64,000 nucleotides of DNA. Origin: an uncultured Gammaproteobacteria bacterium (GTDB lineage: Bacteria > Patescibacteriota > Patescibacteriia > UBA1558 > S5-K13). Below the pieces are notes generated by a model. The model did not search any database and was not told the DNA's origin. It was given only the letters and a program-made list of their open reading frames with translations. A program made the position numbers and the translations under genes. The stretch is taken from assembly GCA_964424195.1 (NCBI GenBank), contig CAYRHT010000001.1, forward strand, positions 135,260 to 199,259. Direction: 5' to 3'. Below, piece after piece: positions 4,048 through 57,234 of this stretch (its first letter is position 1; each line of letters starts with the position of its first letter).

Positions 4048-4052
4048 AAATT

Positions 4053-6257: not shown

Positions 6258-6258
6258 T

Positions 6259-7142: not shown

Positions 7143-7146
7143 AAAT

Positions 7147-8472: not shown

Positions 8473-8476
8473 TATT

Positions 8477-9955: not shown

Positions 9956-9959
9956 AATT

Positions 9960-31880: not shown

Positions 31881-32330
31881 TTATTTTAATAAGAAGTAAC
31901 AGATGATAATTGGAATAAATTGGAATGAATATTCAAAGATGTATTTTGGTTTATAACCAATAAGGCGGTGACATTTGTGATTAAGATCATCAAACTGTTT
32001 AAAAAATTTAATTTTACTTACTCTATATATTCCCCAAAGAATATCCGGCAAGATTGCTCCAGATAAGGCGATTATAATATAATAGATGTTAAAATCATAT
32101 ATTTTGTACACCATATTACTTATGACTAGGACAAATCCAAAATCAAATATAGCCATCAGAGCAATATTAATATCCTTATTTTTAAAACCCTTAGTTATAG
32201 AACTACCATCTCCATGAGGAATAGCATCTAAGATATAATGTAATATAAAATTAACTATAAATAATAGTAGAGGATTAGAAATATATTTGATGCTCGTTAA
32301 AGCAACTATGCTGTGAACGCTTAAAAACAT
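31881..32330 (-). CDS. Hypothetical membrane protein, possibly YdjM-like membrane-bound metal-dependent hydrolase
   Basis: Four TM segments. His/Asp-rich loop ILDAIPHGDGS. Confidence 0.4.
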   Translation of the reverse strand: MFLSVHSIVALTSIKYISNPLLLFIVNFILHYILDAIPHGDGSSITKGFKNKDINIALMAIFDFGFVLVISNMVYKIYDFNIYYIIIALSGAILPDILWGIYRVSKIKFFKQFDDLNHKCHRLIGYKPKYIFEYSFQFIPIIICYFLLK

Positions 32331-32422
32331 AAGTGTATTATATCATGTAATGATGAGTGAGTATTGCTTTGTTTTTTATTTTATTATAAGCTTTAACAAA
32401 AGGAAATATTTAAGGAGGAAAA

Positions 32423-32676: not shown

Positions 32677-32762
32677 GCCGAAGTGGCGGAACTGGTAGAC
32701 GCGCACGACTCAAAATCGTGTGGACTTTGTCCGTGAGAGTTCAAGTCTCTCCTTCGGCACCA
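32677..32762 (+). tRNA. tRNA-Leu (anticodon CAA), class II with long variable arm
   Basis: GCCGAAGTGGCGGAA...CTCAAAA anticodon loop, long extra arm, T-arm GTTCAAGTC and 3' CCA encoded. Confidence 0.85.
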
Positions 32763-32802
32763 TTGACAAAGAGATGAATATTTATTATCATCTCTATATC
32801 GT

Positions 32803-32879
32803 CGCGGGGTGGAGCAGTCTGGCAGCTCGTCAGGCCCATAACCTGAAGGTCGTAGGTTCAAATCCTACCCCCGCTACCA
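32803..32879 (+). tRNA. tRNA-Met (anticodon CAU), likely initiator type
   Basis: CGCGGGGTGGAGCAG start resembles bacterial tRNA-fMet. C1:U72 mismatch at the acceptor end. Anticodon loop cCCATAA. CCA encoded. Confidence 0.75.
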
Positions 32880-32896
32880 ATTTTCTTTAATATCTA

Positions 32897-32973
32897 GGCA
32901 GGGTAGCTCAGTTGGTTAGAGCGCAGGACTCATAAGCCTGAGGTCGCGAGTTCAATTCTCGCCCCTGCTACCA
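32897..32973 (+). tRNA. tRNA with CAU anticodon (elongator Met or lysidine-modified Ile2)
   Basis: GGCAGGGTAGCTCAGTTGGTTAGAGC...CTCATAA anticodon loop, T-arm GTTCAATTC, CCA encoded. Confidence 0.75.
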
Positions 32974-39624: not shown

Positions 39625-40653
39625 ATGATTGAAGAAGATACACAAATATTAACCACTAAAGAACGAGAAGAGGACAAAACCTTGGAAGTTGCTTTGCGTC
39701 CCAAAAGTTTTAAAGAATATATTGGTCAAAAGAATGTGAAGGATAATTTAAAGATTTCTATTCAAGCTGCTAAACAGAGAGAAGAACCAATTGAACATGT
39801 TTTACTTTATGGTCCTCCTGGACTTGGTAAAACTACTTTAGCATATATTATTGCTCGAGAAATGGGAGCTAATATTAAAATTACTTCTGGACCAGCAATT
39901 GAAAAAGTAGGAGACTTAGCAGCTATTTTAACAAATTTAGAAGATGGAGATATTCTATTCATTGATGAGATTCATCGTTTAAACCGAGTAATTGAAGAAG
40001 TTTTGTATCCAGCTATGGAAGAGCATGCTCTAGATATAGTTATTGGTAAAGGTCCTTCAGCTCGAACCTTAAGATTAGATTTATCTAAATTTACAATTAT
40101 TGGAGCCACTACTCGTTATGATTTATTATCTTCACCTTTTCGAGATAGATTTGGCTTAATTTTTAGATTAGATTATTATCAAGCTCAAGAAATATCTACG
40201 ATTATCAAGAATAATGCTCAGAAATTAAATATTGAAATTGATGATCAGGGAGCAAAATATATTGCAGAGCGTTCTCGTTTAACTCCTCGAATTGCTAATC
40301 GTTTGTTAAAAAGAGTAAGGGATTATGCTCAAGTGAAAGGTAATGGAAAAATTTCTGGAGATTATGCTTTAGAAGCTCTTTCGATGATTGATGTTGATAG
40401 TCATGGTTTAGACTATATTGATCGAAGAATACTAGAAACTATTGTGGATAAATTTAAAGGTGGTCCAGTTGGATTATCAACTTTGTCAGCAGCAGCTGGG
40501 GAAGAAATTGGAACCATTAGTGAAATCTATGAACCTTACTTAATGCGAATTGGATTTTTAGCACGAACTTCAAGAGGACGAGTTGTAACTGAAGAAGGAT
40601 ACAAACATATTGAAAGAGAATGTCCAGATGATATACAGAACAAATTATTATGA
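39625..40653 (+). CDS. ruvB: Holliday junction branch-migration helicase RuvB
   Basis: [12 protein letters not shown], Walker [12 protein letters not shown] and sensor motifs. 342 aa. Confidence 0.92.
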
Positions 40654-41183
40654 AGAAAATATTATTACATTCCTGTTGTGCACCATGTAGTGCTCACGTA
40701 ATTCAAGAGTTACAAAAAGAATATGAAGTAACTCTCTTTTATTTCAATCCTAATATTTTTCCAGAAGCGGAATATCAGAAAAGATTAGCAGAAGCTAAGA
40801 AATATTTGAAGAAAATTAATGTAAATTTGATAGAAGGAAAGTATGATTATCAAGCTTGGTTAGAAAAAGTTAAGGGCTATGAAAATGAACCAGAGAGAGG
40901 TAAAAGATGTCAGATTTGCTATCAAATGCGTTTAGCAGAAACAGCTTCTCAGGCGAAAGAATTAGGATGTTCAGTATTTTGTTCTACATTATCAATAAGT
41001 CCTCATAAGGACTCAGAAATGGTAAATAAGATAGGTTTAGAGCTCTCAGAAGAGCATAATATTAGCTATTTACCATCAGATTGGAAAAAACAAGAAGGTT
41101 TTAAAAAAGCTTGTGATATTTCTAAAGAAGAAGGGTTCTATAGACAAGAATATTGTGGCTGTGAATTTAGTATTAGGAAATAA
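40650..41183 (+). CDS. queH: Epoxyqueuosine reductase QueH (DUF208)
   Basis: [11 protein letters not shown]-terminal motif plus conserved Cys (CQICY, CGCEF). Confidence 0.8.
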
Positions 41184-41186
41184 AAT

Positions 41187-42227
41187 ATGAAATTAAGTGA
41201 ATTTAATTACAATTTACCTCAGAAGATGATTGCTCAAAAACCGGCTTCACCGCGGGATTCTTCTAAATTAATGTTAGTTAATTATCAGAGTGGAAAATTA
41301 AGTAATTATATTTTTAATGAACTCCCTGATTTTTTAGAAAAGGGTGATGTTTTAGTTTTTAATAATACTAAAGTTTTCCCAGCAAGGTTATTCGGTAAAA
41401 AAGAAACAGGTGGAAAGGTAGAAGTTTTTTTACTTACTCATCATCAGAAAAATGTTTGGGAAGTATTGATTGGTGGGAAGAGAATGAAAGTTGGGATGGA
41501 GATTATTTTTTCAAAAGATTTTAGATGTATTTTAAAACAAAAAACAGATTCCGGGGTTTGGAAAGTTAAATTTAGTTGTTCTGGAAAAAAGTTGGACAAA
41601 TTAATTGATCATTATGGAAATATTCCTATTCCTCCATATATTAAAAGTACAAGTAGTAAATCTAAATTGAAGAAAGAATATCAAACTGTTTATGCTCAGA
41701 AGAGAGGGTCAGTAGCAGCGCCAACAGCTGGCTTGCATTTTACTAATCGGATTTTGAATAAATTAAAGAAACAGGGAGTAGTTTTTAAATATGTGACCTT
41801 ACATGTTGGTCTAGGAACTTTTGAACCAGTGAAAGAAGAGAAAGTTGAAGACCATCAGATTCATTCTGAGTTTGGAATTCTAGATCAAGCTATTGCTAAA
41901 TATTTGAATAAAGCTCGGAAAAATGGTCGGAGAATTATTATTGTTGGTACTACTACTATGCGAGTTATTGAAGCTTTTGCTAATCAAAAAGGAATTTTAA
42001 AAGCAAATAAAAAATGGATAGATATATTTATCTATCCTGGTTACAAGTTTAAGTTTGCTAGTAATCTAATGACTAATTTTCATTTACCTAAATCAACTCT
42101 TTTAATGTTAATTTCAGCTTTAGCTGGAAAGTCTTTAGTTAAAAAAGCATATCAAAAAGCTATAAAAGATAAATACAGATTCTTTTCTTTTGGAGATGTT
42201 ATGTTGATTAATGATTTTAAAGAATGA
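41187..42227 (+). CDS. queA: S-adenosylmethionine:tRNA ribosyltransferase-isomerase
   Basis: LSEFNYNLPQKMIAQKPASPRDSSKLM is a QueA N-terminus. 346 aa. Confidence 0.9.
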   Translation: MKLSEFNYNLPQKMIAQKPASPRDSSKLMLVNYQSGKLSNYIFNELPDFLEKGDVLVFNNTKVFPARLFGKKETGGKVEVFLLTHHQKNVWEVLIGGKRMKVGMEIIFSKDFRCILKQKTDSGVWKVKFSCSGKKLDKLIDHYGNIPIPPYIKSTSSKSKLKKEYQTVYAQKRGSVAAPTAGLHFTNRILNKLKKQGVVFKYVTLHVGLGTFEPVKEEKVEDHQIHSEFGILDQAIAKYLNKARKNGRRIIIVGTTTMRVIEAFANQKGILKANKKWIDIFIYPGYKFKFASNLMTNFHLPKSTLLMLISALAGKSLVKKAYQKAIKDKYRFFSFGDVMLINDFKE

Positions 42228-44190: not shown

Positions 44191-44832
44191 TTGTCCACAT
44201 TTTTAAAAAATAAAATTCTATGTTATAGTGTATTTACTAAGAAATTAAAAAACATTATGTCTAAAACATTATTTAATAATATTATAAAGGATTTAAAACT
44301 TTATTACCAAGAAAGAGGAGTTTTACATAAAATATCATCTGAAGGGCTTACTAAAAGCAAACAAGCAATCTTTACTGCTCATGATGGTGAAATTGCAAAA
44401 GCGGAGAAGATACTTAAAGAAGTTAGGGGATTATTAACAGATTTGAATAAAAAGTATAATCATAGTAATCGATTACAATTTGAAGGATCCTATCGAGCTT
44501 GTGTTGAAGAATTTTTAGAAGCTAGTTTTTTTGTAGCTACTCTAAAGGGTAAAGAATTAAAATTAGATCCTGATTTTCAATTTGGGCCAGAAGAATATAT
44601 TGGTGGACTTTGTGATTTAACTGGTGAATTAGTTAGACAAGCAGTTTTATTAGGAAGTAAAAAGAATTTACCTAAGATTAAAAAATATACTAAGATGACT
44701 AAAGAAGTTGTTGGATTTATGATGCAATTATATATCTCTGGAAAATCAAGACAAAAATTTGATGAAGCTAAGAGAAATTTAAAGAGATTAGAACAAATTG
44801 TTTATGAAATTAATTTAAAAAATATTAAATAA
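44191..44832 (+). CDS. Translin-family protein; the true start may be the Met at 44257
   Basis: EEYIGGLCDLTGELVRQAV and SRQKFDEAKRNLKRLEQIVYEINL align with translin core EYLGGISDLTGELMRLAI and LRKRYDGLKYDVKKVEEVVYDLSI. Confidence 0.6.
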   Translation: MSTFLKNKILCYSVFTKKLKNIMSKTLFNNIIKDLKLYYQERGVLHKISSEGLTKSKQAIFTAHDGEIAKAEKILKEVRGLLTDLNKKYNHSNRLQFEGSYRACVEEFLEASFFVATLKGKELKLDPDFQFGPEEYIGGLCDLTGELVRQAVLLGSKKNLPKIKKYTKMTKEVVGFMMQLYISGKSRQKFDEAKRNLKRLEQIVYEINLKNIK

Positions 44833-46761: not shown

Positions 46762-47802
46762 ATGATTTTATCTTCTTACAATAATTTATATTTATTTATT
46801 AAAAGACATTTTAATAATTTGTTACCTTTTTTAAATTTTGTTAAGCTTTTTAATGGAGTTACTGCTTTGTTAGAGATGGCTATGAGGAAGGAAAGGTGTC
46901 ATTCATTTCCTTTGATATATAGAATAGATCCTTGTACTCAATGTAATTTAAAGTGTCCACCATGTACATCTTGGCAAACAAATACTAAAGAAAAAAGGAT
47001 GATGGAATACAGTGATTACAAAGTGATAATTGATAAAGTAAAAAAATACGCTTTGAGAGCTTCATTATATGACATGGGAGAACCCTTGTTGAATAAGGAT
47101 ATCTATAAAATGATTAAATATGCTAGTAATAATAATATAAGTACATTAATTAGTACTAATTTTAATTTATTTAATAGGAATCAAATTAAGGATTTATTTG
47201 AAAGTCGCTTAACTGTTTTAGAGCCTTGTTTGGATAGTTTTACTCAAAAAAATTATGAAATATATAGAAGAGGTGGGAATGTTCAATTGGTTAAAAATAA
47301 CATAAAAAGTGTTATGGAATATAAATTAAAGAATAAATTTAAATATCCAATTGTTGATGTACAGATTATTAATTTTAAATATATAAAAAATGAAATTCCT
47401 TTAATTAATAAATTTTTAAAAAGAAATAAAGTAGATAAAATTACTTATCGGAAGGATATTTATGATTTTAATACAGACATAATTACAGAGGTTAAAAGTA
47501 ATAGAAAAACATGTTTTTGGTTGTATTTAGGTATGATGATTAGACCAGATGGAAATGTTTATCCTTGTTGTGGTAAAGATTTCAATCGTTTTTCTTATGG
47601 TAATATATTGAGTCAAAATTTAGAGGATATTTGGAATAATGAATATTATCGTTTTTCTAGAAAGTTATTTAAGAGGGGTAAGAACTTATCTTACAATAAA
47701 AAGATGAAAAATATACCTTGTTTAACTTGTAATAATTTTACAAAATTAAGAATAATGAAAAAAGACTGTAATAAAAATCCTCTACTGAGAGTAGAGGATT
47801 AA
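46762..47802 (+). CDS. Radical SAM protein with C-terminal SPASM/twitch-like Cys-rich domain; the true start is probably the Met at 46876/46882
   Basis: Cx3Cx2C motif CNLKCPPC. GEPLL SAM-binding motif. C-terminal CFWLYLGMMIRPDGNVYPCCGKDF...CLTCNNF auxiliary-cluster-type cysteines. Confidence 0.7.
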   Translation: MILSSYNNLYLFIKRHFNNLLPFLNFVKLFNGVTALLEMAMRKERCHSFPLIYRIDPCTQCNLKCPPCTSWQTNTKEKRMMEYSDYKVIIDKVKKYALRASLYDMGEPLLNKDIYKMIKYASNNNISTLISTNFNLFNRNQIKDLFESRLTVLEPCLDSFTQKNYEIYRRGGNVQLVKNNIKSVMEYKLKNKFKYPIVDVQIINFKYIKNEIPLINKFLKRNKVDKITYRKDIYDFNTDIITEVKSNRKTCFWLYLGMMIRPDGNVYPCCGKDFNRFSYGNILSQNLEDIWNNEYYRFSRKLFKRGKNLSYNKKMKNIPCLTCNNFTKLRIMKKDCNKNPLLRVED

Positions 47803-47818: not shown

Positions 47819-49117
47819 TTAATAATCTAAGTCTGGATAAAGAGGAAATTTATCACACAGGTCTTTGACTTGTTTTTTTATTTTCTCTAAAACTGTATTA
47901 TCTTTGTTATTCTTTAAAGCCTCTACAATCATCTTAGCTATTTCTTTCATTTCTTCTTCTTTCATTCCTCTAGAAGTCAAAGCTGGAGTGCCAATTCTAA
48001 TTCCAGATGGATCAAATGGAGATCGAGGATCAAAAGGAATAGTATTCTTATTCACCGTAATCATAGCCTTTTCTAGAGCAGTTTCAGCTTCGGAACCACT
48101 AATATTAAAAGGAGTAACATCAATAAGCATTAGATGATTATCAGTTCCACCAGTGATTACTTTTAATCCAGCATTCATTAATTCTTCAGCTAATACTTTA
48201 GCATTTTTTACAATCTGTTCAGCATAAACTTTAAATTCTGGTTGTTGAACTTCGAATAAAGCTTGAGCTATTCCAGCTGTAGTTTGATTATGAGGACCAC
48301 CTTGTAATCCTGGGAATACAGCTCGATCAATATATGATGGAATATTATGTTTTGATTCTTTCCAACCAATAACTGGTTCTGGTTTCTTAACTGGATTAGA
48401 TGGATCACCATCACACATAATCATTGCTCCTCGAGGTCCTCTTAAAGTCTTGTGAGTAGTAGTAGTAATTACATCAGCATGTCCAGCTGGAGAAGGATGA
48501 ACACCACCAGCAATTAAACCAGCAATATGAGCAACATCAGCAATTAAAAATGCATTTTCAGCATGAACAATTTCTGCTAATTTTTTAAAATCAATTATTC
48601 GAGAATAAGCAGTTGCTCCAACAAAGACTAGTTTTGGTTTTTCTTTTTTAACTAAAGCTTCAATAGCATCATAATCTAGGAAACCATCTTTATCAGTAGT
48701 ATATTGAATTGATTCATAGAATCTTCCACTAAAATTTACTTTCCAACCATGAGTTAGATGTCCACCATACAAAAGATTAAATCCCATTACTTTATCTCCT
48801 GGTTCACAAAGAGCAAAATATACAGCTTGGTTAGCTGGAGATCCAGAATATGGTTGAAGATTAGCATGGTCAACTTTAAAGATATTTTTAGCATAATCTC
48901 GACCCATATTTTCAATTTCATCTACAAATTCATTGCCACCATAATATCTTTTTCCGGGATAGCCTTCAGAATATTTATTAGTTAAAATTGAACCCATAGC
49001 TTTAAGGACATTTTCGGAAACATAATTCTCTGAAGCAATCATTTCTAAACCATCTTGTTGGCGTCCAAGTTCTTGGTTAATTAATCCAAATAAGTCATTG
49101 TCTTTTTTGTTTATCAT
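47819..49117 (-). CDS. glyA: Serine hydroxymethyltransferase
   Basis: LEMIASENYVS, PLP-lysine motif TTTTHKTLRGPRG. 432 aa. Confidence 0.93.
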   Translation of the reverse strand: MINKKDNDLFGLINQELGRQQDGLEMIASENYVSENVLKAMGSILTNKYSEGYPGKRYYGGNEFVDEIENMGRDYAKNIFKVDHANLQPYSGSPANQAVYFALCEPGDKVMGFNLLYGGHLTHGWKVNFSGRFYESIQYTTDKDGFLDYDAIEALVKKEKPKLVFVGATAYSRIIDFKKLAEIVHAENAFLIADVAHIAGLIAGGVHPSPAGHADVITTTTHKTLRGPRGAMIMCDGDPSNPVKKPEPVIGWKESKHNIPSYIDRAVFPGLQGGPHNQTTAGIAQALFEVQQPEFKVYAEQIVKNAKVLAEELMNAGLKVITGGTDNHLMLIDVTPFNISGSEAETALEKAMITVNKNTIPFDPRSPFDPSGIRIGTPALTSRGMKEEEMKEIAKMIVEALKNNKDNTVLEKIKKQVKDLCDKFPLYPDLDY

Positions 49118-49233
49118 AGATTTAATTTATTTTTAAGTATTAATATTATATCATTGTTTAAAGATTTTTCTATATTGACATTATAAGAATATTATTTTAA
49201 GATATAGAAAATAAAGAAGAAATAGGAGGAAAG

Positions 49234-49506
49234 ATGTCAGTAATGGACTGGTTAGTTATTGTATTAGGAGTGTTATTTTGGATTGGAATACCAGTAGCTA
49301 TAGAAATTTATTCCAGAAAAGAAGAAAAAAAAGAGATCTTAAAGAAAAAGAAAACCTCGAATGATAAAAACTTTGGACATCTACATGCTGAACTTTTTAA
49401 AGAAGATGGTAATATGAAAATATTTACACCAGAAGAAAGAAAATCTCTTCTTACTTTGAGACCTGAGTTGAAAGATCCACCACCTTTTATTAAGACTTAT
49501 CACTAG
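49234..49506 (+). CDS. Small membrane protein, hypothetical
   Basis: One N-terminal TM helix, basic tail. AGGAGGAAAGATG RBS. Confidence 0.5.
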   Translation: MSVMDWLVIVLGVLFWIGIPVAIEIYSRKEEKKEILKKKKTSNDKNFGHLHAELFKEDGNMKIFTPEERKSLLTLRPELKDPPPFIKTYH

Positions 49507-49523
49507 CTAATACAAAATCAAAA

Positions 49524-49551
49524 ACTGTTCGAAAATTTCGAGCAGTTTTTT
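49524..49551. terminator. Bidirectional intrinsic terminator
   Basis: ctgttcgaaa-a-tttcgagcag hairpin with one G.U pair, flanked by A- and T-runs, between convergent genes. Confidence 0.7.
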
Positions 49552-49572: not shown

Positions 49573-51165
49573 TTATATCTTCTTAGTCATATAAGTTCCT
49601 TCAAGTTTATACCCTAACTTTCGATAATATTCTCGAACTCCAATACCAGAAATTACAGCAATTTTAGAATATTTATTTTTTTTGGATAATTTTTCAGCTT
49701 CAATCATTAGTTTTTTACCAAAGCCCATATGTTGAGCACTTGATTTTGATTTAGACTTTCCATGAGCTACTAATTTACCATAGGCATGAATTTCTCTAAC
49801 AATGGAAGAATTATTTAATTCAGAGATAAAGTTATCTTGAGAATTGTTGAAACGCAATCTTAAAAAAGCATATAGTTTATTTCGTTCTTTGTTTTCATAA
49901 GAGATAAAATATTCTATGCCATCGGAGGCTTTATATTTTTCTATAAATAATTTAGCATCAGATAATTTAATTTCTTGATCTTTTATTTCCCGACAACGAA
50001 TACATTTACATTGTATATTTTTCTTCTTTAATTCTAATTGAACACTTTGTCTTAAATTAGTAATTCTATTTCCAGCCACAATTGATTCAGAAGGAATATC
50101 CCTAATTAACCTATTAATCCGTACATAATAGGGGATAGTTTTAATCTTTATTTTAATTAATAAGTCTAAGAGTTGTTTTTTAGTATAAGGGGTATACTTT
50201 TTATCTTTAAATAGCTTATAAAGTGTTTGAGCTTCTTTAGTAACTACACAGGGATAAATTTTAATTTGATCTGGCTGGTAATCAGGAGTGAAAAAAACTT
50301 TTTCAAACATTTTAAAGTCCTTGGCTGGAGTAGAAAATGGTAAGTCAGGCATTAAATGATAATCTACTTTAATTCCAGCTTGTTTACATAATTTAGTAGC
50401 TTCAATAATTTCTTTTTGAGTATGACCTCTTTTAATTTTTTGGAGAATTTGATCATCAGTATGTTGAACGCCAAGTTGGATCCGAGTACAACCCTGTTCT
50501 CGCATAGCAATAATCTCTTTTTTATTTACTAAATCGGGTCGAGTCTCTAAAGTTTCTCCAATAATCCTATATTTAGTTTTTTCATTTTTTTTTAATTCTT
50601 TTTCCAAGGTAGTTTTTACCTTTTCTTTGTTCTGGGGATAGTCATTAGCAGCTTGAAAACATTTAGCAATAAAATTATCTTGATAACTACGAGTATAGGC
50701 GTTCCAAGAACCTCCTAAGACCAAGAGTTCTATCTTGTCAACTACATGACCATTAGTTTCCAAAGCTTTAATTCGGTATTGAACTTGTTGGTAAGGATTA
50801 AAATTTAAACCTTTAGCTCGTTGAGCTGCTGGTTCATTGGATAAATAACTAACTGGCATATTTTTTTCATGAGGACAATAGATACATTTTCCAGGGCATT
50901 GATATGGTTTAGTTAAAACAGTTACTGGAGTTACACCAGAGATTGTTCTAGTAGCCCGGGCAATAGTTAAATTTTCAAAGTTTAGGTTTTTTTTAATTAA
51001 GCCTTTTTGTAAAAGTTTGCGATAGGCTTTAATTAAAACAGAATTCATTACTGGCTCTATTTTATTTTTTCCACAGAGTTTCTTTTTTGCTGATTCAAAA
51101 GTATCCCTATTTTTGTAGGGTTTTTTAATTAGTTCTTGAACAATTTTTTGGTATAATGAATTCAT
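49573..51165 (-). CDS. elp3: Elp3-like protein (radical SAM + C-terminal GNAT acetyltransferase); the ORF track extends to 51210 but the start is likely the Met at 51165
   Basis: Radical SAM Cys cluster CPGKCIYCP. C-terminal GNAT segment HMGFGKKLMIEAEKLSK...GVREYYRKLGY. Architecture matches the Elp3 family. Confidence 0.75.
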   Translation of the reverse strand: MNSLYQKIVQELIKKPYKNRDTFESAKKKLCGKNKIEPVMNSVLIKAYRKLLQKGLIKKNLNFENLTIARATRTISGVTPVTVLTKPYQCPGKCIYCPHEKNMPVSYLSNEPAAQRAKGLNFNPYQQVQYRIKALETNGHVVDKIELLVLGGSWNAYTRSYQDNFIAKCFQAANDYPQNKEKVKTTLEKELKKNEKTKYRIIGETLETRPDLVNKKEIIAMREQGCTRIQLGVQHTDDQILQKIKRGHTQKEIIEATKLCKQAGIKVDYHLMPDLPFSTPAKDFKMFEKVFFTPDYQPDQIKIYPCVVTKEAQTLYKLFKDKKYTPYTKKQLLDLLIKIKIKTIPYYVRINRLIRDIPSESIVAGNRITNLRQSVQLELKKKNIQCKCIRCREIKDQEIKLSDAKLFIEKYKASDGIEYFISYENKERNKLYAFLRLRFNNSQDNFISELNNSSIVREIHAYGKLVAHGKSKSKSSAQHMGFGKKLMIEAEKLSKKNKYSKIAVISGIGVREYYRKLGYKLEGTYMTKKI

Positions 51166-51828
51166 ATGAATAATGATATTAAAAAAGCTTATGATGTAGT
51201 GGCTGAACATTTTAGTTTAACTCGGAAAAGAGCTCTACCATCACAATTAATAGATTTTAAACAATATTTGGCTAATGGTCAACAGGTTTTAGATTTAGGT
51301 TGTGGTTCTGGAAGAATTATTCGGATTTTAAAGGATTTTGAAATAGATTGTGTTTTTACAGATATTTCCGAGAAGCAAGTTAATTATGCCAGAAAAGAGG
51401 AGCGAGGTAAAATAAGGAGTGCTGAATTTATTGCTGAGGACATGATAAATTCTTCTTTTCCAGATAATAAATTTGATGTCATTTTTTGTGTAGCTACTTT
51501 TCATCATTTAAAAACTAGAAAAGCTAGAATTAAATTTTTGAAGAATGTTTATTCTTGGTTAAAGCCCGAAGGATATTTTTTAATGACTAATTGGAATTTA
51601 ATGCAAAAGCGTTATTTTAAATACATTTTTAATTTTAAAAAGAGAGTTTGGAATGATTTTTCTATTCCTTACAAAGATAATCAGGGGAAGAATTTAGCTA
51701 ATCGTTATTATCATAGTTTTACTCATCAGGAATTAGAAAAACTTCTATTAAAAGTTGGTTTTAAGATAGAAAAATTAGAATTATCTGAAAATGGGAACGA
51801 CCGAGTAAGTGTTTGTCGGAAAAGATAA
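51166..51828 (+). CDS. Class I SAM-dependent methyltransferase, Trm9/ALKBH8-MTase-like
   Basis: Motif I VLDLGCGSGRII. ATFHHLKTRKARIKFLKNVYSWLKPEGYFLMTNWN resembles Trm9 AVIHHF...LKPGG..L.YVWA. TATAAT at 51153..51158 lies 7 nt upstream of the ATG, so the mRNA may be leaderless. Confidence 0.65.
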   Translation: MNNDIKKAYDVVAEHFSLTRKRALPSQLIDFKQYLANGQQVLDLGCGSGRIIRILKDFEIDCVFTDISEKQVNYARKEERGKIRSAEFIAEDMINSSFPDNKFDVIFCVATFHHLKTRKARIKFLKNVYSWLKPEGYFLMTNWNLMQKRYFKYIFNFKKRVWNDFSIPYKDNQGKNLANRYYHSFTHQELEKLLLKVGFKIEKLELSENGNDRVSVCRKR

Positions 51829-51899
51829 TTTTTACTATTGACTAATCCCTTATAATCCCATATAATTACTTATATAACTTATAAGCATTGTAAATAAAG

Positions 51900-52979
51900 T
51901 TGAAGATTATGGAAAAAGATAAATTAACAACTAGATTAAATTTTAGAAAATTAGAGGATGCTCAAAAAATTCAACGTTTGTTAGCGGAAATTGATGAATT
52001 TAAGGGTCGATGGATCGCAGGAATGAAATTATCTCCGCAGATTTTGAATAAATTAAAAAGATCGGTAATTATTACTTCTACTGGGTCTAGTACTCGAATT
52101 GAGGGAGTAGAGCTTAGTGATGAAGAGATTGAAAAATTATTTAAAGGTTTAAAGATTAAAAAATTTAATACTAGAGATGAACAAGAAGTAGCTGGTTATA
52201 AAGAGCTTTTGGAAAACGTTTTTAATTCTTATTTAAATATAAAATTTAATGAGAGTTTAATTAAAAGTTTTCATAAAGAATTATTAAAATATTCTGAAAA
52301 AGATAAGTATCATTTAGGGAAGTATAAATTTGATAATAATCAAGTAGAAGCTCTTGATTTAAAGGGCAAGGTAATTGGCATTGTTTTTGATCCAAGCCCA
52401 CCACATTTAACCTCTAAAGAGATGAATGAGTTGATTGAATGGACTCAAACTGCTTTACAAAAGAATTTAATTCACCCTTTGCTAGTAATTGGAAATTTCA
52501 TTTTGGAATTTTTAGCAATTCATCCTTTTCAAGATGGTAATGGTCGAACTTCAAGAATTCTGACTAATTTTTTGATGCTTAAATTAGGATATGAATATAT
52601 GCCTTATGTTTCGCATGAAAAATTTATAGAGGATAATAAAACAGATTATTATTTAGCCCTTCGAAAAAGTCAGGGGAATTGGAAAAAACGAAGTAAAGAT
52701 ATTGCCCCGTGGATGATTTTCTTTTTAAATATTGTCTTAGAACAAGCTCAAATGGCAATTACTATTAGTGATAATGAGAAAATAGAATTTTTGTTATCAG
52801 AGAAGCAGTTGTTAGTTTGGGAATATTTTCAAGAGCATGAGTATTTAAGTCCAAAAGATATTAGAGATAATTTGAATATCAAAGAGTCAACTGTGTTGCA
52901 GATATTAAATAAATTATTAAATATGAAGAAAATTGAACGTTTAGGAATGGGTAGAGGTGTGAGATATAAGAAAACTTAA
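51900..52979 (+). CDS. Fic family protein (class II, with N-terminal inhibitory motif)
   Basis: Fic motif HPFQDGNGRTSRIL. N-terminal STRIEG matches the (S/T)xxxE(G/N) inhibitory helix. C-terminal winged-helix-like domain. Confidence 0.85.
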   Translation: MKIMEKDKLTTRLNFRKLEDAQKIQRLLAEIDEFKGRWIAGMKLSPQILNKLKRSVIITSTGSSTRIEGVELSDEEIEKLFKGLKIKKFNTRDEQEVAGYKELLENVFNSYLNIKFNESLIKSFHKELLKYSEKDKYHLGKYKFDNNQVEALDLKGKVIGIVFDPSPPHLTSKEMNELIEWTQTALQKNLIHPLLVIGNFILEFLAIHPFQDGNGRTSRILTNFLMLKLGYEYMPYVSHEKFIEDNKTDYYLALRKSQGNWKKRSKDIAPWMIFFLNIVLEQAQMAITISDNEKIEFLLSEKQLLVWEYFQEHEYLSPKDIRDNLNIKESTVLQILNKLLNMKKIERLGMGRGVRYKKT

Positions 52980-53098
52980 GGAGAATTTTTAGTTTTATAT
53001 TAAAAGAATTTTTATTCCGTCAAGAGATTTTTAACGGTTTTTTATTTTACCTTAAAAATGTGTTATAATATAAGCAAATATAAACAAAAATGAATTAA

Positions 53099-54208
53099 AT
53101 GCCAGATATTAAAATAAAAAGTGATCTTGGTAATTTTTCTGATATTAATGATGAAATTATTATCAAAGATGATGATGATTTTCAAGTTTTTTCCCAAGGA
53201 AATTTATCAGATTTAGATATTTCTAAATTAGAAGAAAAGAAAAAGTTTTCAGAATCTAAAGAAGTCCTAGATACAGGTAAGGAAGAAATAAATTTAGCTC
53301 CACCAGCTCCAGTTGTTTGGGATAAAAAATCTAGCTTTTATTTCGATATTCAAGATGAAGATGATATTGCTCAGGAGGTCAAGAAGATAGCAAAGATGGA
53401 GAAAGAATCTCCAGAATCTACAAAGAGCAAGGAATTAAAAAAATACAGTTTAACTAAGATATTAAAAAAACTTTTAGAGAATTATAATTTAAATTTACTA
53501 CCAGATTTAGAAAAAAGATTGAGTAATATTGTTCTGTCTTTTTTAAAACATACTAGAAATAGAGTAGATGCTTTGAATTTGTTTAAGGCTCCGATTAATC
53601 AATCTGGTTTAGCCATCGATAGTGAGTTAGCAGGTAAATTAATTGATTTATTAGATAATATTAGGACTAAAGTTGATGAAGTCGGAGGAAGTATTATTGA
53701 GGATCAAAAGGATGTAAAAAATAATAATCAAGTTCAAAATAACCAACGGGTAGAAAACTTAGCTAATATTGATCCGCGACAAAAGATTAAAGTTGAAGAA
53801 AAAGGAATAGAAATACCAATGATTCAAAGGAATTCTTCAGTTGGAGACAAGCCTATAGTTACAGGTATTAAAAAGAAGGAAAGAGTAGTTGGTCCAATGG
53901 ATGAATTTTCAGAAATTACTTTAATAAATTTTAGACGTTTATCCAACGACCCTACTGAAGCAGCTCAGAAAATTATGGATAGAATTAGATCTTTAGAAAA
54001 AGAATCATATATCAAGAGAGCGACAGCTATTCAGAACTGGAGAAAGAGCGAGGTTTATAAACTTTATTTAGATTTAGGTAGAGAAAGTATGGAAAAAAAT
54101 CTATCAATAGATAAAATTATTGAACAAAAGATTTTAAATAAAGAAAAAGTTTTGAAGATGAAAGAGTTTAGTGCTGTTACAGATTTAAATAAAAAATTAA
54201 GGTTTTAA
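53099..54208 (+). CDS. Hypothetical protein (first gene of the T4SS-like cluster)
   Basis: 369 aa, acidic, no TM helix and no recognised domain. Confidence 0.45.
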   Translation: MPDIKIKSDLGNFSDINDEIIIKDDDDFQVFSQGNLSDLDISKLEEKKKFSESKEVLDTGKEEINLAPPAPVVWDKKSSFYFDIQDEDDIAQEVKKIAKMEKESPESTKSKELKKYSLTKILKKLLENYNLNLLPDLEKRLSNIVLSFLKHTRNRVDALNLFKAPINQSGLAIDSELAGKLIDLLDNIRTKVDEVGGSIIEDQKDVKNNNQVQNNQRVENLANIDPRQKIKVEEKGIEIPMIQRNSSVGDKPIVTGIKKKERVVGPMDEFSEITLINFRRLSNDPTEAAQKIMDRIRSLEKESYIKRATAIQNWRKSEVYKLYLDLGRESMEKNLSIDKIIEQKILNKEKVLKMKEFSAVTDLNKKLRF

Positions 54209-54210
54209 AT

Positions 54211-54669
54211 ATGCGTTATATTGTTCCTCAATTTATTGATGTCGAAGATAAAATATTTGGTCCAGTTACGGTTCGACAGTTTTTAATTTTAACAGTTGGC
54301 GGGCTTTTTATATTCATCTCCTTTAAATTATCTGATTTTTCCTTATTTGTTTTTTTAACTGTTATCATCGCTGGTTTAGCAGTGGTAATTGCCTTTGTTA
54401 AGGTGAATGGTAAAAAATTTCATGTCTTTTTCCTAGATATGTTAAATTTTCTTTTTAAAACTCCTAAATTATCTATTTGGCAAAAAAAAGAAAACACTAT
54501 TAAAACCATAGAGATAAAAGAAAAGGAAATAATAGATGATTATTACTTTAATCCCAAAGATTTACCACGAACAAAGTTGTCAGAAATATCTTTAGTAGTT
54601 GATACTGGTGGAGCATATATTGGTGAAGATAATAATGACTCATTAATAGGACAAAAATATGAAAAATAA
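54211..54669 (+). CDS. PrgI-like / VirB3-like small membrane protein
   Basis: 152 aa. N-terminal MRYIVPQFIDVEDKIFGPVTVRQFL followed by two TM helices, immediately upstream of a VirB4-like ATPase. Confidence 0.55.
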   Translation: MRYIVPQFIDVEDKIFGPVTVRQFLILTVGGLFIFISFKLSDFSLFVFLTVIIAGLAVVIAFVKVNGKKFHVFFLDMLNFLFKTPKLSIWQKKENTIKTIEIKEKEIIDDYYFNPKDLPRTKLSEISLVVDTGGAYIGEDNNDSLIGQKYEK

Positions 54670-55330
54670 AAAGAGAAAAACAAATAGTGCTGCTCAAGAA
54701 ATTTTAGAAATTTCTAGTATTCAGGATAATATGGTGATTTTGAAAAATGGTACTGTCCGAGCAGTGTTAATGGTTTCATCTATTAATTTTGCTTTAAAAA
54801 ATCAAGACGAGCAAGAAGGTATTATTGGAGCTTTTTATTCTTTCTTAAATTCGATTGATTATCCTTTACAAATAGTTATTCAATCAAGAGCCTTAGACAT
54901 TGATCAGTATTTAGATAAATTAGATAAATTAGGAAAACAGCAAACTAATGAATTACTAAGAATGCAAACTACTGATTATACCCAGTTTATTAGAGAGCTT
55001 CTACAATTACAATCAATTATGAGTAAGAAGTTTTTTGTAGTCGTCCCTTATTCAGTCGTAGAAGTTAAAAAGAAAAGTTTTTTCACTCAAGCTTCTGATC
55101 TATTTACAGCTCAGAAAGTATTGAAAATTAGGAAGAAAGAATATGAAGAATACAAGGATCAATTATTTAGAAGAGTTGGTCATGTTCGTTCAGGTTTAGA
55201 AGGTATGGGATTGCAATCAGCACCATTGGATACTTCAAGTCTAATAGAACTTTATTATAATTCATATAACCCAGAAACTTCCAAAAGAGAGAAGTTAAAG
55301 GATATTAAAAAAGTTAGAATTGATGAGTAA
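54659..55330 (+). CDS. Hypothetical T4SS-associated protein
   Basis: 223 aa, translationally coupled (11-nt overlap) between the PrgI-like and VirB4-like genes. Confidence 0.4.
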   Translation: MKNKKRKTNSAAQEILEISSIQDNMVILKNGTVRAVLMVSSINFALKNQDEQEGIIGAFYSFLNSIDYPLQIVIQSRALDIDQYLDKLDKLGKQQTNELLRMQTTDYTQFIRELLQLQSIMSKKFFVVVPYSVVEVKKKSFFTQASDLFTAQKVLKIRKKEYEEYKDQLFRRVGHVRSGLEGMGLQSAPLDTSSLIELYYNSYNPETSKREKLKDIKKVRIDE

Positions 55331-55365
55331 GATTATTAATTTATTTGTAAAATAATAATTCTAAG

Positions 55366-57234
55366 ATGTTTAAACAAAAACAAATTCAAGAAACAAATAA
55401 TGCTTCTGAACAGGATTCACAAGTTTCAACACAGAATAATGTTCAAGATAAGCGTTTTTTAGAAGCTGAAAAAGTATATCGAAGAGGTAAGACTTCTGTT
55501 AAAGATTTAATTGCTCCAGCTGCTTTTAAAGTAGAAAGTAGTTTTCTTCGGATTGGTGATAAATATGTTAGTACTATTTATGTTATAACTTATCCTCGAT
55601 ATATTAGTATTGGATGGTTTGCTCCAGTTATTAATTATTCTATTCCTTTGGATGTTGCTATGTATTACTATCCTTTACCTTCAGAAAAGATTTTAAAAAA
55701 GTTAAGAAACAAAGTTGGTTCTTTGGAAGCTCAATTACATGGTGATGCTGAAAAAGGTGCTCCTCGTGATCCCCAAAGACAAACTGCCTTACAAGATATT
55801 GAAGAATTAAGAGATAATTTGACTCAAGGTACAGAGAAATTTTTTCAATTTGCTTTGTATATAACTATTTATGCTAATGATCCAGAAGAATTAGAAAAAA
55901 GAGTTGAAAATGTTGAAAATATTTTTGGTTCAAAATTAATTTTTACTAAGAGAGCATTATTTACTTCTAAAGAAGGATTTAATTCAACTTTACCACTAGG
56001 TAATGACGAATTATACATTGCCAACAATATGAATTCATCCCCGGCTTCTGCCTCTTTCCCTTTTATCTCTTCCGAATTAACTAGTGATGATGGTATTTTG
56101 TATGGAATTAATCGACATAATAATTCTCTGATACTTTTTGATAGATTTTCTTTACAAAATGCTAATGCTGTTGTTTTTGCTACTTCTGGTGCTGGTAAAT
56201 CCTACGCTATTAAGTTAGAAGTAATTCGAAGTTTAATGATGGGTACAGAGGTTATTATAATTGATCCGGAAAAAGAATATCAACATTTATCAGAAGCAGT
56301 AGGAGGAACATATATTAATCTTTCTCTAAATTCTAATTCTAAAGTTAATCCTTTCGATTTACCTAAGGGTTTAAGTAAAGAGATGAAGGCGGCTGATGTT
56401 TTAAGAAGTGCTGTAATTACTTTAAAAGGATTAATTCGTTTAATGGTCGGTAAATTATCTCATTTGGAAGATTCTTTAGTTGATCGAGCGCTTTTAGAAA
56501 CTTATGCTAAAAAAGATATTACAGCAGATAGTGATTTAGATGATGTAGAAGCTCCTTTGATGGCAGATTTTGAAGAAGTTTTAAATGGAATGGAAGGTGG
56601 AGGAGACTTAGCTCAAAGAATTAAAAAATATACTGAAGGAACTTTTGCAGGACTTTTTAATAGTCCTACTAATGTTGATGTTACTAATCAATTAATTACT
56701 TTTAGTGTTCGAGATTTAGAAGATGAATTAAGACCAATCGCTATTTATACCATTATTACCTATATTTGGAATTTAGTTAGATCTCAAGTTAAGAAGAGAA
56801 TCTTAATTATTGATGAGGCTTGGTGGTTAATGCAACATGAAGATAGTGCTAAGTTTATCTATGCTTTAGTAAAAAGATGTCGAAAATACTATTTAGGAGT
56901 AACTACTATTACTCAGGATGTTAATGACTTTTTAAGATCACCATATGGTCAAGCTATTGTTACTAATTCTTCTTTACAATTATTGTTAAAACAGTCTCCA
57001 GCAGCTATTGATCTAATTCAAAAGACTTTTATGCTGACTGATGAAGAAAAATATTTACTATTACAAGGTAAAGTTGGACAAGGAATTTTCTTTGCTGGAA
57101 ACAAGCATGTCGCAATTCAAATTGAAGCATCATATACTGAAGATCAATTAATTACCTCTGATCCAAAACAACTTTTAGAAATTGAAGAAGCTAAGAGAGA
57201 GTTTAAAGACAAACAAGTAAAAGAAAATTCTTAA
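55366..57234 (+). CDS. VirB4/TrsE/PrgJ-like conjugation ATPase
   Basis: Walker A ATSGAGKSY, Walker B ILIIDEAWWLM. N-terminal IAPAAFKVESSFLRIGDKYVSTIYVITYP typical of Gram-positive VirB4 homologues. Confidence 0.8.
   Translation: MFKQKQIQETNNASEQDSQVSTQNNVQDKRFLEAEKVYRRGKTSVKDLIAPAAFKVESSFLRIGDKYVSTIYVITYPRYISIGWFAPVINYSIPLDVAMYYYPLPSEKILKKLRNKVGSLEAQLHGDAEKGAPRDPQRQTALQDIEELRDNLTQGTEKFFQFALYITIYANDPEELEKRVENVENIFGSKLIFTKRALFTSKEGFNSTLPLGNDELYIANNMNSSPASASFPFISSELTSDDGILYGINRHNNSLILFDRFSLQNANAVVFATSGAGKSYAIKLEVIRSLMMGTEVIIIDPEKEYQHLSEAVGGTYINLSLNSNSKVNPFDLPKGLSKEMKAADVLRSAVITLKGLIRLMVGKLSHLEDSLVDRALLETYAKKDITADSDLDDVEAPLMADFEEVLNGMEGGGDLAQRIKKYTEGTFAGLFNSPTNVDVTNQLITFSVRDLEDELRPIAIYTIITYIWNLVRSQVKKRILIIDEAWWLMQHEDSAKFIYALVKRCRKYYLGVTTITQDVNDFLRSPYGQAIVTNSSLQLLLKQSPAAIDLIQKTFMLTDEEKYLLLQGKVGQGIFFAGNKHVAIQIEASYTEDQLITSDPKQLLEIEEAKREFKDKQVKENS

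Follow-up and report, generated by a model that had tools for sequence, protein, structure and literature searches.

The closest described relatives of the locus reported here belong to pathways that tune the wobble uridine (U34) of tRNA. In eukaryotes, Elp3, which combines radical SAM and KAT domains, works within Elongator alongside Elp1/2/4/5/6, and its methyltransferase counterparts are Trm9-Trm112 and ALKBH8-TRMT112. Archaea have a stand-alone Elp3, as in Methanocaldococcus infernus (MinElp3), and their Trm9 acts with Trm112, as in the Haloferax pair HVO_1032-Trm112. Eukaryotic and archaeal Trm9 alike require Trm112, and archaea turn cm5U into other products as well. MnmE/MnmG/MnmC (cmnm5U and mnm5U) and CmoA/CmoB/CmoM (mcmo5U) have a comparable role at U34; like Trm9, CmoM methyl-esterifies a carboxyl group on the modified uridine. 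To our knowledge, mcm5U-type wobble modifications and Trm9 have been treated as archaeal and eukaryotic traits. [quoted passage not shown] A 2017 review described bacterial homologues of the Trm112-partner methyltransferases as not detectable (PMC5372719). Studied bacterial Elp3 is limited to the stand-alone enzyme of Dehalococcoides mccartyi (DmcElp3), and we found no literature report on the fate of its product. Our literature search returned nothing relevant on Elp3 or Trm9 in CPR/Patescibacteria and no paper describing the pair in bacteria.

We analyzed a 64,000-nucleotide stretch of patescibacterial DNA (the window) in which an Elp3 gene (49573..51165, minus strand, 530 amino acids [aa]) and a class I methyltransferase (MTase) open reading frame (ORF) (51166..51828, plus strand, 220 aa) are encoded divergently. 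We consider it likely that in this tiny-genome member of the Patescibacteria (CPR) the locus specifies a two-step pathway, archaeal/eukaryotic in type, for modifying the wobble uridine, with divergent transcription and a leaderless MTase mRNA. Unlike eukaryotic Elongator, the CPR locus is bacterial and lacks Elp1/2/4/5/6. Unlike yeast Trm9, the CPR MTase is only about 220 aa long, is without the yeast insertion, and is encoded next to Elp3 with abutting start codons.

Identity of the two enzymes

The minus-strand gene encodes an unambiguous member of the Elp3 family, predicted to be a tRNA U34 cm5U synthase. TIGR01211 matches the protein over its full length with 532.5 bits (cutoff, 350), aligning residues 8-530 with profile positions 2-522, and PF04055 and PF16199 both exceed their cutoffs. 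The generic Pfam GNAT model falls slightly under its own (19.1 versus 20.7), and the acetyl-CoA motif QHxGxG is present as QHMGFG and conserved across the CPR Elp3s. The best matches in the PDB are MinElp3 (6IAD, 1.6e-110) and DmcElp3 (5L7J, 1.5e-103), the latter sharing the same two-domain core in a bacterial stand-alone enzyme. The full-length profile match and the solved structures thus confirm the initial annotation of a radical SAM and GNAT protein as a true Elp3. Two further traits of the CPR proteins stand out. The Fe-S cysteine motif CPGKCIYC aligns with CPHGKCIFC of MinElp3 through a one-residue deletion, and the resulting Cx3Cx2C form is uniform across the CPR Elp3s, unlike the Cx4Cx2C of MinElp3. 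A K/R-rich N-terminal extension, with 17 K/R in the roughly 70 aa ahead of the part that aligns with the solved cores, is likewise conserved among CPR Elp3s. Archaeal and eukaryotic Elp3s have a basic extension of this tRNA-binding type, whereas DmcElp3 lacks the basic N terminus (PMC6367351, which also treats the role of the extension in tRNA binding).

The plus-strand ORF encodes a class I SAM MTase, matching Methyltransf_11 at 8.4e-21. Its SAM-binding motif I reads LDLGCGSG, residues D43 and D66 are invariant, and its AF2 model is Rossmann-type (pLDDT 94.4). The Pfam and NCBIfam libraries, which hold no Trm9-specific model, returned only generic or subthreshold families, and fold searches likewise indicated a generic fold, with 3SM3 as the top Foldseek match. 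We obtained a sharper placement by searching the PDB with a profile of 39 sequences of the MTase family (profile A1). The top match was Trm9 of Yarrowia (YlTrm9; 5CM2_Z, 1.2e-30, 109.7 bits, profile 22-222 on chain 2-196), the sole PDB match to align over both halves of the protein and to take in the motifs TR, HH, W, PW, and RYYH. A search with the single MTase sequence instead placed PEAMT first and Trm9 only tenth, a misleading order because the PEAMT alignment is confined to the SAM-binding half. When YlTrm9 was used in reverse, it matched only the MTase ORF within the window (1.9e-13); the two proteins are about 25% identical. The profile check for both families proposed in the initial annotation succeeded for Elp3 through TIGR01211 and for Trm9 through profile A1, the libraries having no Trm9 model. 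An identical protein is named TRM9 in IMG, and some relatives carry the name UbiE in databases. An exhaustive profile search outlines a large family (1,855 clusters at an E value of ≤1e-30), which comes without names and gives no Trm9 placement.

Alanine substitutions at R29, D72, H116, W145, W168, R241, Y243, and N271 abolish the activity of yeast Trm9 (PMC4678810); D72 is the acidic residue that binds the ribose. Among the 39 family members, R29, D72, and W145 are conserved in all, H116 and Y243 in 38, and R241 and N271 in 36, while the W168 site is W, Y, or F in 37, so that conservation ranges from 92 to 100% if an aromatic is counted at the W168 site. The window MTase is identical to the Trm9 pocket at R20, H114, W143, R180, and Y182, which correspond to the R29/H116/W145/R241/Y243 pocket of the eukaryotic enzymes. 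It departs from it conservatively at two places, with Y169 for W168 of Trm9 and N211-D212 for the Trm9 D-N; at the latter position the family has N second, and most members keep W and N at both sites. The Trm9 signature motifs are absent from the next-best PDB relatives, PEAMT, 3SM3, and PH0226. We asked whether 3SM3 might be an archaeal Trm9 and dismissed the idea, as it lacks every signature motif. Together, the best full-length match to Trm9, the retained pocket, and the absence of that pocket from the next-best PDB relatives uphold the proposal that the MTase is Trm9-like beyond its class I fold, and we predict that it is a cm5U-to-mcm5U carboxyl methyltransferase.

Conservation of the pair

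To assess linkage, we counted 24 informative CPR Elp3 loci in a clade whose Elp3 identity is 44% or higher. At 15 of these loci the MTase gene is divergent and directly adjacent, at 5 it is divergent at a distance of 0.6 to 2.9 kb, and at 2 it lies 4 to 5 kb downstream. A divergent upstream MTase gene thus accompanies Elp3 at 20 of the 24 loci, in the midst of differing flanking genes, and an MTase gene lies within 6 kb at 22. Three distant MTase relatives (37 to 38% identity), looked up independently, are all divergently adjacent to Elp3 and have different flanking genes. The adjacency persists down to 25 to 40% MTase identity at more than 20 loci with varied flanks. The initial annotation named a lack of co-occurrence in other genomes among the findings that would refute it; we find the pair conserved across CPR lineages.

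Against the proposed pathway, no MTase gene was found within 6 kb of Elp3 in the Gracilibacteria/Peribacteria clade, which uses an alternative genetic code. No Trm9-like gene lies within 6 kb at the single Chloroflexota locus recovered. One contig (L051) appears archaeal and bears an archaeal ThrRS editing domain, and it shows the same divergent Elp3/MTase neighborhood; in its MTase, P0118, the H116 position is occupied by C and the Y243 position by T. In the window, the GC content over the pair is 27 to 31% compared to 29.5% for the whole, and composition gives no sign of recent transfer of the pair.

We also searched for a Trm112 partner. A Zn-knuckle regular expression, run on the window and 50 related loci, picked up only sporadic, nonconserved Zn-ribbon ORFs and no small Zn-knuckle ORF that is conserved, a possible difference from the eukaryotic systems. 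No Trm112 fusion occurs among the longer members of the MTase family, which carry NUDIX, WecG, or SET domains instead; these extensions are probably read-throughs into neighboring genes.

Predicted pathway and competing readings of the methyltransferase

In the pathway we propose, Elp3 would use its [4Fe-4S]/SAM radical chemistry and acetyl-CoA to carboxymethylate U34 at C5, which forms cm5U, with the basic N-terminal extension aiding tRNA binding. The Trm9-type MTase would then esterify the carboxylate with SAM to yield mcm5U34 or, where the tRNA is thiolated as well, mcm5s2U34. Judged from homology, the locus may therefore hold a complete bacterial mcm5U pathway, as the initial annotation suggested. 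Its standing as a new member, from bacteria, of the Elp3/Trm9 pathway is well supported.

Two other readings of the MTase need to be weighed against this one. The enzyme could partner Elp3 and yet perform different chemistry, on another atom of the uridine or on a neighboring nucleotide, or it could be inactive for want of a Trm112-like partner, so that the product would not be simple mcm5U. The two pocket deviations of the window MTase (Y in place of W168, and N-D in place of D-N) point in this direction, as do the failure to find Trm112 in the window, the 50 loci, or family fusions, the replacement of H116 and Y243 by C and T in P0118, which lies beside an Elp3, and the conversion of cm5U into other products by archaea. 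Opposed to these are the residues proposed to position the carboxylate (R29 and H116) and to stack on the base (W145) in Trm9, which are invariant or nearly so, the W and N that most family members retain at the deviating sites, and an alignment to Trm9 that spans the full length. We regard different chemistry or inactivity as unlikely. Less probable still, and already disfavored, is an unrelated general or small-molecule enzyme of the UbiE or PEAMT kind that came to lie beside Elp3 through genome compaction or synteny. Such an enzyme would account for the generic or subthreshold library matches, the lead of PEAMT in the single-sequence search, the generic fold, and the UbiE names of some relatives. 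It is difficult to reconcile with divergent adjacency that endures at 25 to 40% MTase identity across more than 20 loci with different flanks, with PEAMT-type matches that cover only the SAM-binding half, and with the conservation of Trm9-specific residues outside the SAM site. A Trm9-type esterification of cm5U is accordingly the reading we prefer.

The conserved CPR Elp3-Trm9 pair predicts a bacterial mcm5U pathway and offers a concrete case for studying how split codon boxes are decoded in ultrasmall genomes, as well as possible gene exchange with archaea. The MTase itself, as a small Trm9 that may need no partner, would suit studies of mechanism and structure.

The junction and its candidate promoters

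The plus strand at the junction reads attCATATGaat, with CATATG at 51163..51168, where the two divergent ATGs touch and leave an intergenic spacer of 0 nucleotides (nt). The coordinates of both ORFs and the meeting of their start codons at CATATG are as the initial annotation described them. The palindrome follows automatically from two abutting divergent ATGs and is no additional feature. The conserved Elp3 start is the ATG at 51165..51163 on the minus strand. An alternative start at 51210, which gives the longer ORF 49573..51210, had been doubted, and rightly so: the orthologs in L024 (89% identity) and L006 (79%) each have one possible start, aligned to M16 of the long ORF; position 2 of TIGR01211 aligns at residue 8 of the 530-aa form; and the public gene call has this 530-aa length. 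For the MTase, no alternative ATG precedes residue 93, and Y9, F16, and R20 are conserved.

This zero-spacer divergent architecture is unusual. The window has five other divergent gaps, all of them larger, at 57 nt or more. Short or negative spacers are recurrent among relatives: the start codons overlap by 2 nt as CATG in six loci from three lineages (L003, L004, L005, L007, L023, and L042), two of which (L003 and L004) have unique start candidates for both genes, and spacers of 7 to 43 nt are found in most other relatives. Since no spacer separates the genes, the promoter of each would lie within the first codons of its partner.

Upstream of the MTase, TATAAT at 51152-51157 is preceded by TGG and forms an exact extended −10 element, TGGTATAAT (51149..51157, plus strand; 6/6 with the TG present), encoded within Elp3 codons 3 to 6. 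It ends 8 nt from the A of the MTase ATG rather than the 7 nt first assigned to the hexamer. For Elp3, the TAATAT initially proposed at about 9 nt is present (51181..51176, minus strand) but lies 10 nt from the ATG, and TATCAT (51173..51178, minus strand) is better placed at 7 nt. TATCAT is the weaker of the two candidates, matching TATAAT at 5/6 positions within MTase codons 3 to 5 and having no TG extension; a hexamer of this quality and spacing has a background rate of about 5 to 6%. We took a −10 element 5 to 9 nt upstream of the start codon, which would make the transcription start site coincide with the AUG, as the mark of a leaderless gene, and both TGGTATAAT (8 nt) and TATCAT (5/6, 7 nt) fall within this range. 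Given TGGTATAAT at this distance, the MTase mRNA is likely leaderless, most likely beginning at or within 2 nt of the AUG. The Elp3 mRNA may be leaderless from TATCAT, for which the case is weaker, or equally possibly leadered from TTGACC-17-TAAAAT, a promoter-like site (10/12) deeper in the MTase gene (51254..51282, minus strand) that would provide the mRNA with a leader some 80 nt long, running antisense to the 5′ end of the MTase. The initial proposal that both genes are leaderless is thus well supported for the MTase, while for Elp3 a leadered transcript is as plausible. The candidate promoters overlap, as was also proposed, but their arrangement is back-to-back (divergent) and not face-to-face. 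We found no relevant literature on leaderless mRNAs in CPR.

Conventional expression is a less probable but substantial alternative. Elp3 could start at the ATG at 51210, or both mRNAs could carry leaders with antisense 5′ untranslated regions running through the partner gene, the −10 hexamers being chance occurrences at 29.5% GC. TTGACC-17-TAAAAT (51282..51254) could drive such a leadered Elp3 mRNA. Sites of its kind, however, are no more frequent in the region than in shuffled sequence, and generic sigma-70 matches around the junction likewise stay within shuffle expectation, which counts against the main reading. The number of TGNTATAAT sites in the window (n = 7) equals chance expectation, although five of the seven lie directly upstream of genes, 6 to 56 nt from the start on the correct strand (p ~2.5e-7), the placement expected of real promoters in this genome. 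Most CATG-overlap loci have no recognizable −10 element at leaderless spacing; across 16 pairs, however, −10-like hexamers occur at that spacing in 7 of 32 upstream regions versus a background of 4.6%, an approximately fivefold enrichment (p = 5e-4). Three observations exclude the start at 51210: the single possible start in each of L024 and L006, the profile alignment, and the public gene call. A 39-nt block (51121..51159, Elp3 gene nt 7-45) is identical to the L006 ortholog, synonymous sites included; it contains the complement of TGGTATAAT and is invariant in L024 too. No exact run is longer in the whole Elp3 gene (1.6 kb), which has 77% overall nucleotide identity with L006, and about 0.07 such runs are expected. 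Its conservation is only suggestive, and the block with TGGTATAAT persists in L006 even though the MTase ATG there is 239 nt away, which speaks for conventional expression. Shine-Dalgarno-like motifs are seldom used in this genome (10 of the window's 56 ORFs have one), and their absence at the pair is therefore uninformative. On balance, we favor a leaderless MTase mRNA.

A broader and more speculative reading extends these features to much of the CPR. There, an Elp3 acting alone and a Trm9 that needs no Trm112 would make mcm5(s2)U34 of the eukaryotic/archaeal type, perhaps replacing the bacterial MnmEG route, and both would be expressed from a conserved zero-spacer bidirectional unit (CATATG or CATG) with promoters in the first codons of the partner. 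Two polymerases could not share such a unit at once, which would couple expression of the two genes. We offer this generalization tentatively and think it more doubtful than the pathway proposed for the locus itself. Divergent start codons that touch or overlap also provide a compact natural system in which to test leaderless initiation and interference between promoters.

Elsewhere around the pair, a hairpin at 51105-51120 is not conserved among close relatives. A bidirectional intrinsic terminator (49520..49550; a 14-bp hairpin with a flanking A-run and T-run) ends both Elp3 and a convergent 90-aa ORF, and the Fic gene is preceded by a promoter of its own. Both features support the view that Elp3 and the MTase would be transcribed divergently as separate monocistronic units.

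Identity of the Elp3 and Trm9-like proteins

The Elp3 protein matches the TIGR01211 profile over its whole length with 532.5 bits against a cutoff of 350, and among solved structures it matches the Elp3 enzymes of Methanocaldococcus infernus (MinElp3; 1.6e-110) and Dehalococcoides mccartyi (DmcElp3; 1.5e-103) as well as yeast and mouse Elongator. These profile and structure matches confirm the radical SAM plus GNAT assignment made in the initial annotation, and we consider the protein almost certainly a genuine Elp3. Its Fe-S cysteines (CPGKCIYC) follow a Cx3Cx2C spacing that is uniform among the Elp3 proteins of the Candidate Phyla Radiation (CPR), in contrast to the Cx4Cx2C of MinElp3, and the acetyl-CoA motif QHMGFG is present. 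An N-terminal extension of about 70 residues, rich in lysine and arginine (17 K/R), is found here and in nearly all CPR homologs. In archaeal Elp3 such a basic extension drives tRNA binding, whereas the studied bacterial enzyme, DmcElp3, lacks it (PMC6367351). The CPR enzyme is thus of the archaeal/eukaryotic type.

The divergently encoded methyltransferase (MTase) is recognized in Pfam and NCBIfam only as a generic class I MTase, and a single-sequence search of PDB ranks plant phosphoethanolamine MTases at the top and Yarrowia Trm9 tenth. We therefore aligned 39 diverse homologs with 30 to 83% identity and ran the resulting profile against PDB. Yarrowia Trm9 (5CM2_Z) then ranks first (1.2e-30, 109.7 bits) and is the only match spanning both halves, with profile positions 22-222 aligned to chain residues 2-196. 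The family and Trm9 have in common the motifs TR(x)KxW, AxxHH, W(x)L(x)Q, DxxxPW, and RYYH, which are missing from the next-best PDB relatives (PEAMT, 3SM3, and PH0226). In the reverse direction, a search of all ORFs in the window with Yarrowia Trm9 returned the MTase as the sole match.

Mutagenesis of yeast Trm9 by Létoquart et al. showed that activity requires R29, D72, H116, W145, W168, R241, Y243, and N271, and in their proposal the cm5U carboxylate is held in place by R29 and H116, with W145 stacking on the base (PMC4678810). The corresponding columns of the CPR family (n=39) hold R29 in 39/39 members, D72 in 39/39, H116 in 38/39, W145 in 39/39, R241 in 36/39, Y243 in 38/39, and N271 in 36/39, and the W168 column is aromatic in 37/39 (W 27, Y 7, F 3). 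The window MTase deviates conservatively at two sites, with Y169 at the W168 position and N211-D212 in place of the D-N of Trm9. The Trm9-like character first read from its motifs is upheld by the top rank of Trm9 in the profile search together with the conservation of these essential residues. Gene calls fuse four Trm9-like members (P0122, P0199, P0252, and P0261) to a NUDIX, WecG glycosyltransferase, or SET domain. NUDIX and WecG genes also neighbor the pair in loci L046 and L049, so these fusions may be read-through gene calls.

Conservation of the pair and the proposed pathway

The window matches without difference a stretch of a 952-kb contig in JGI metagenome 3300022916, and the nearest relatives of both proteins come from metagenome-assembled genomes of Patescibacteria/CPR. 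With the Elp3 protein as query we scanned one genome per species, recovering 44 loci, and searched their surroundings for the MTase by tblastn. Loci whose Elp3 identity reaches 44% or more form a clade of Falkow-, Komeili-, Buchanan-, Peregrini-, Pacei-, and related bacteria, in which 24 loci offer enough upstream DNA for a judgment. The MTase is divergent and directly adjacent to Elp3 in 15 of these, divergent at 0.6 to 2.9 kb in 5, on the same strand 4 to 5 kb downstream in 2, and not found within reach in the remaining 2. The converse look-up started from three independently chosen MTase relatives with 37 to 38% identity, from Magasanikbacteria, an 812-kb Patescibacteria contig, and a 119-kb contig. 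In each, Elp3 lies divergently adjacent (gaps of 74, 35, and 9 nt) while the remaining neighbors differ. The initial annotation had treated co-occurrence in other genomes as decisive, and the pair indeed recurs in 22 of the 24 loci and in 3/3 relatives. A 481-aa Elp3 lies one gene from P0118, the most divergent MTase relative, and their contig also encodes the archaeal ThrRS editing domain.

No MTase was detected by tblastn within 6 kb of Elp3 in the single Chloroflexota locus or in 17 Gracilibacteria/Peribacteria loci with 35 to 39% Elp3 identity (L026-L043), and the latter result indicates that the pairing is clade specific inside the CPR. Translation table 11 fragments the Elp3 ORFs of these 17 loci by in-frame stops, consistent with stop-codon recoding; Gracilibacteria and Peribacteria recode one stop codon. 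Clustering of Elp3 and Trm9 genes has been reported as well in Sulfolobus (PMC6144793). Overall, the MTase is very probably tied to Elp3 in function.

In the proposed pathway, Elp3 would form cm5U34 from acetyl-CoA via radical chemistry, and the Trm9-like MTase would use SAM to methyl-esterify cm5U34 to mcm5U34, yielding mcm5s2U34 where the tRNA is also thiolated. Family membership and residue conservation make it likely, though less so than the functional tie itself, that the MTase makes mcm5U. Eukaryotic and archaeal Trm9 require Trm112. We found no conserved Trm112-like ORF near the Elp3/MTase loci and no Trm112 fusion among the family members. Domains of MnmE/MnmG, MnmA, and CmoA/B were not found in the 64-kb window, which is not informative on the whole genome. 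The tRNA cluster at 32677-32973 (plus strand) contains Leu(CAA) and two Met(CAT) genes but no U34 tRNA, and the window thus holds no candidate substrate.

Both the enzymes and the pathway are already well known, and automated annotation already names "TRM9"; the pair is a bacterial addition rather than a new system. A literature search for Elp3 together with the phrase "candidate phyla radiation" found nothing, none of the Elp3/Trm9 papers listed in our searches mentions Patescibacteria, and work on bacterial Elp3 has centered on Dehalococcoides. A 2017 review described bacterial homologs of the Trm112-partner MTases as undetectable (PMC5372719).

Start codons and candidate promoters at the junction

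The ORF list places a 545-aa Elp3 ORF at 49573..51210 (minus strand) and the 220-aa MTase ORF at 51166..51828 (plus strand), which would overlap. The MTase start is fixed, since its ATG (51166-51168) is the first start codon past the upstream stop, the following methionine occurs only at residue 93, and conserved family positions already occur at residues 9, 16, and 20. An Elp3 start at 51210 was suspected from the outset not to be real, and four lines of evidence favor 51165 instead: TIGR01211 position 2 aligns with residue 8 of the 530-aa form; the Elp3 orthologs in the related loci L024 (89% identical) and L006 (79% identical) each have one possible start, aligned with the methionine at 51165; the public gene call is 530 aa; and the 15 additional residues of the longer form are antisense to the MTase N terminus. 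With the Elp3 ATG thus at 51163-51165 (as complement), the two start codons abut with zero spacer at 51163-51168, as originally described. The junction reads attCATATGaat, and its palindrome reflects nothing beyond two abutting divergent ATGs.

Elsewhere in the window, which is A+T rich (29.5% GC), the five remaining divergent gaps all measure at least 57 nt, compared to 0 here. Six related loci representing three sequence-distinct lineages show a 2-base start-codon overlap, CATG (L003, 5982-5985; L004, 5997-6000; L005, 6006-6009; L007, 5988-5991; L023, 5898-5901; L042, 2278-2281). Only one start is possible for each of the two genes in L003 and L004, and there the overlap therefore follows from the ORFs alone. 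Spacers in other loci measure 7 to 43 nt, with 239 nt in L006. Most lineages thus have no space between the genes for two promoters and leaders, and this conserved zero or negative spacer is the less expected aspect of the locus.

An exact extended -10, TGGTATAAT, lies at 51149-51157 (plus strand), separated from the MTase ATG by 8 nt. The seven occurrences of this motif in the window equal the number expected by chance, but five of them sit 6 to 56 nt ahead of a gene start and on its strand (chance p ~2.5e-7), preceding the genes at 31881-32330, 33088, and 53099, SHMT (serine hydroxymethyltransferase, glyA), and the MTase. Placement so far beyond chance argues that the motif works as a genuine promoter element, and the mRNA of the MTase probably has either no leader or one of 1 to 2 nt. 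The best Elp3 candidate is TATCAT (minus strand), 7 nt upstream of the ATG and without a TG extension; alternatively, the promoter-like TTGACC-17-TAAAAT at 51282..51254 (minus strand) could give Elp3 a leader of about 80 nt. The suggestion that both genes are leaderless therefore holds better for the MTase than for Elp3.

In 16 Elp3/MTase pairs, 7 of the 32 upstream regions carry, at leaderless spacing, a hexamer that fits the -10 consensus in at least 5/6 positions, compared with a background rate of 4.6% (p = 5e-4); the six CATG-overlap loci mostly have none recognizable. Shine-Dalgarno (SD)-like motifs precede only 10 of 56 window ORFs, so their absence at the pair says nothing. Where found they are strong (AGGAGGAAAA plus ATG), mostly before small ORFs of 85 to 152 aa (e.g., starts at 17890, 28943, 35319, 42507, and 49234). 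The Elp3 genes of the window and L006, 77% identical overall, share no exact nucleotide run longer than 39 nt; this longest run spans gene positions 7-45 and takes in the complement of TGGTATAAT. With ~0.07 such runs expected by chance, it is only suggestive.

The Elp3 unit stops at a 14-bp bidirectional terminator hairpin (49520-49550), and the downstream Fic gene has a separate promoter, TTGACT-17-TATAAT, at 51838-51866, so both genes look monocistronic. The hairpin CCCTATTTTTGTAGGG followed by a T-run (51105-51120), inside the Elp3 5' coding region and just upstream of the MTase promoter (plus strand), is probably incidental, since its stem is unconserved in L024 and L006. Elsewhere, a second exact extended -10, TGATATAAT (32337-32345, minus strand), lies 6 nt upstream of the ATG of gene 31881-32330 (minus strand; 149 aa, function unassigned), which suggests the use of leaderless mRNAs at other loci of the genome. 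The ClpB-like gene at 25657 is preceded by TG-TATTAT at a distance of 6 nt.

Neighboring genes

ORF clustering shows SHMT beside Elp3 in 13 of about 45 loci (window, 47819-49117, minus strand; L003, 8237-10332; L046, 3500-4750; L048, 4367-5647). A FolD-like family follows SHMT in nine loci, and L003 carries Elp3, SHMT, and FolD on one strand. In the window, a terminator lies between SHMT and Elp3, and SHMT is preceded by a TGATATAAT promoter of its own (49145-49153), so the proximity of the two genes may reflect lineage synteny rather than an operon. Between them, a 90-aa ORF (49234-49506, plus strand) runs convergently with Elp3; it is preceded by a strong SD, begins with a hydrophobic helix at its N terminus, and matches nothing in Pfam. 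A 346-aa radical SAM/SPASM protein (46762-47802, plus strand), 1.8 kb downstream of the Elp3 stop, scores far below the cutoff of every NCBIfam subfamily.

QueH and QueA (40650-42227) lie 8 kb from the pair, and QueH and TsaE lie near it in the Magasanikbacteria locus L046 (1480-2031 and 2969-3406); queuosine is also a position 34 modification in the anticodon loop. A Translin-family protein (44191-44832, plus strand; PF01997, 6e-17) adds another nucleic-acid protein of archaeal/eukaryotic type, the family being chiefly eukaryotic and archaeal. A contiguous de novo purine cluster occupies 842-13343 and 15779-17578, comprising FGAM synthase parts, PurM, a fused amidotransferase-SAICAR synthetase, an embedded NUDIX gene, PurE, PurB, PurF, PurD, PurN, and PurH, with GMP synthase after them. 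To our knowledge CPR genomes usually lack nucleotide synthesis, and the cluster is thus unusual for a CPR-type genome. Beyond the MTase, the plus strand (51900-57234) encodes a Fic-domain protein bearing a winged helix at its C terminus and, after it, a type IV secretion-like set comprising PrgI-like, TraC-like, and VirB4/TraG-type ATPase genes.
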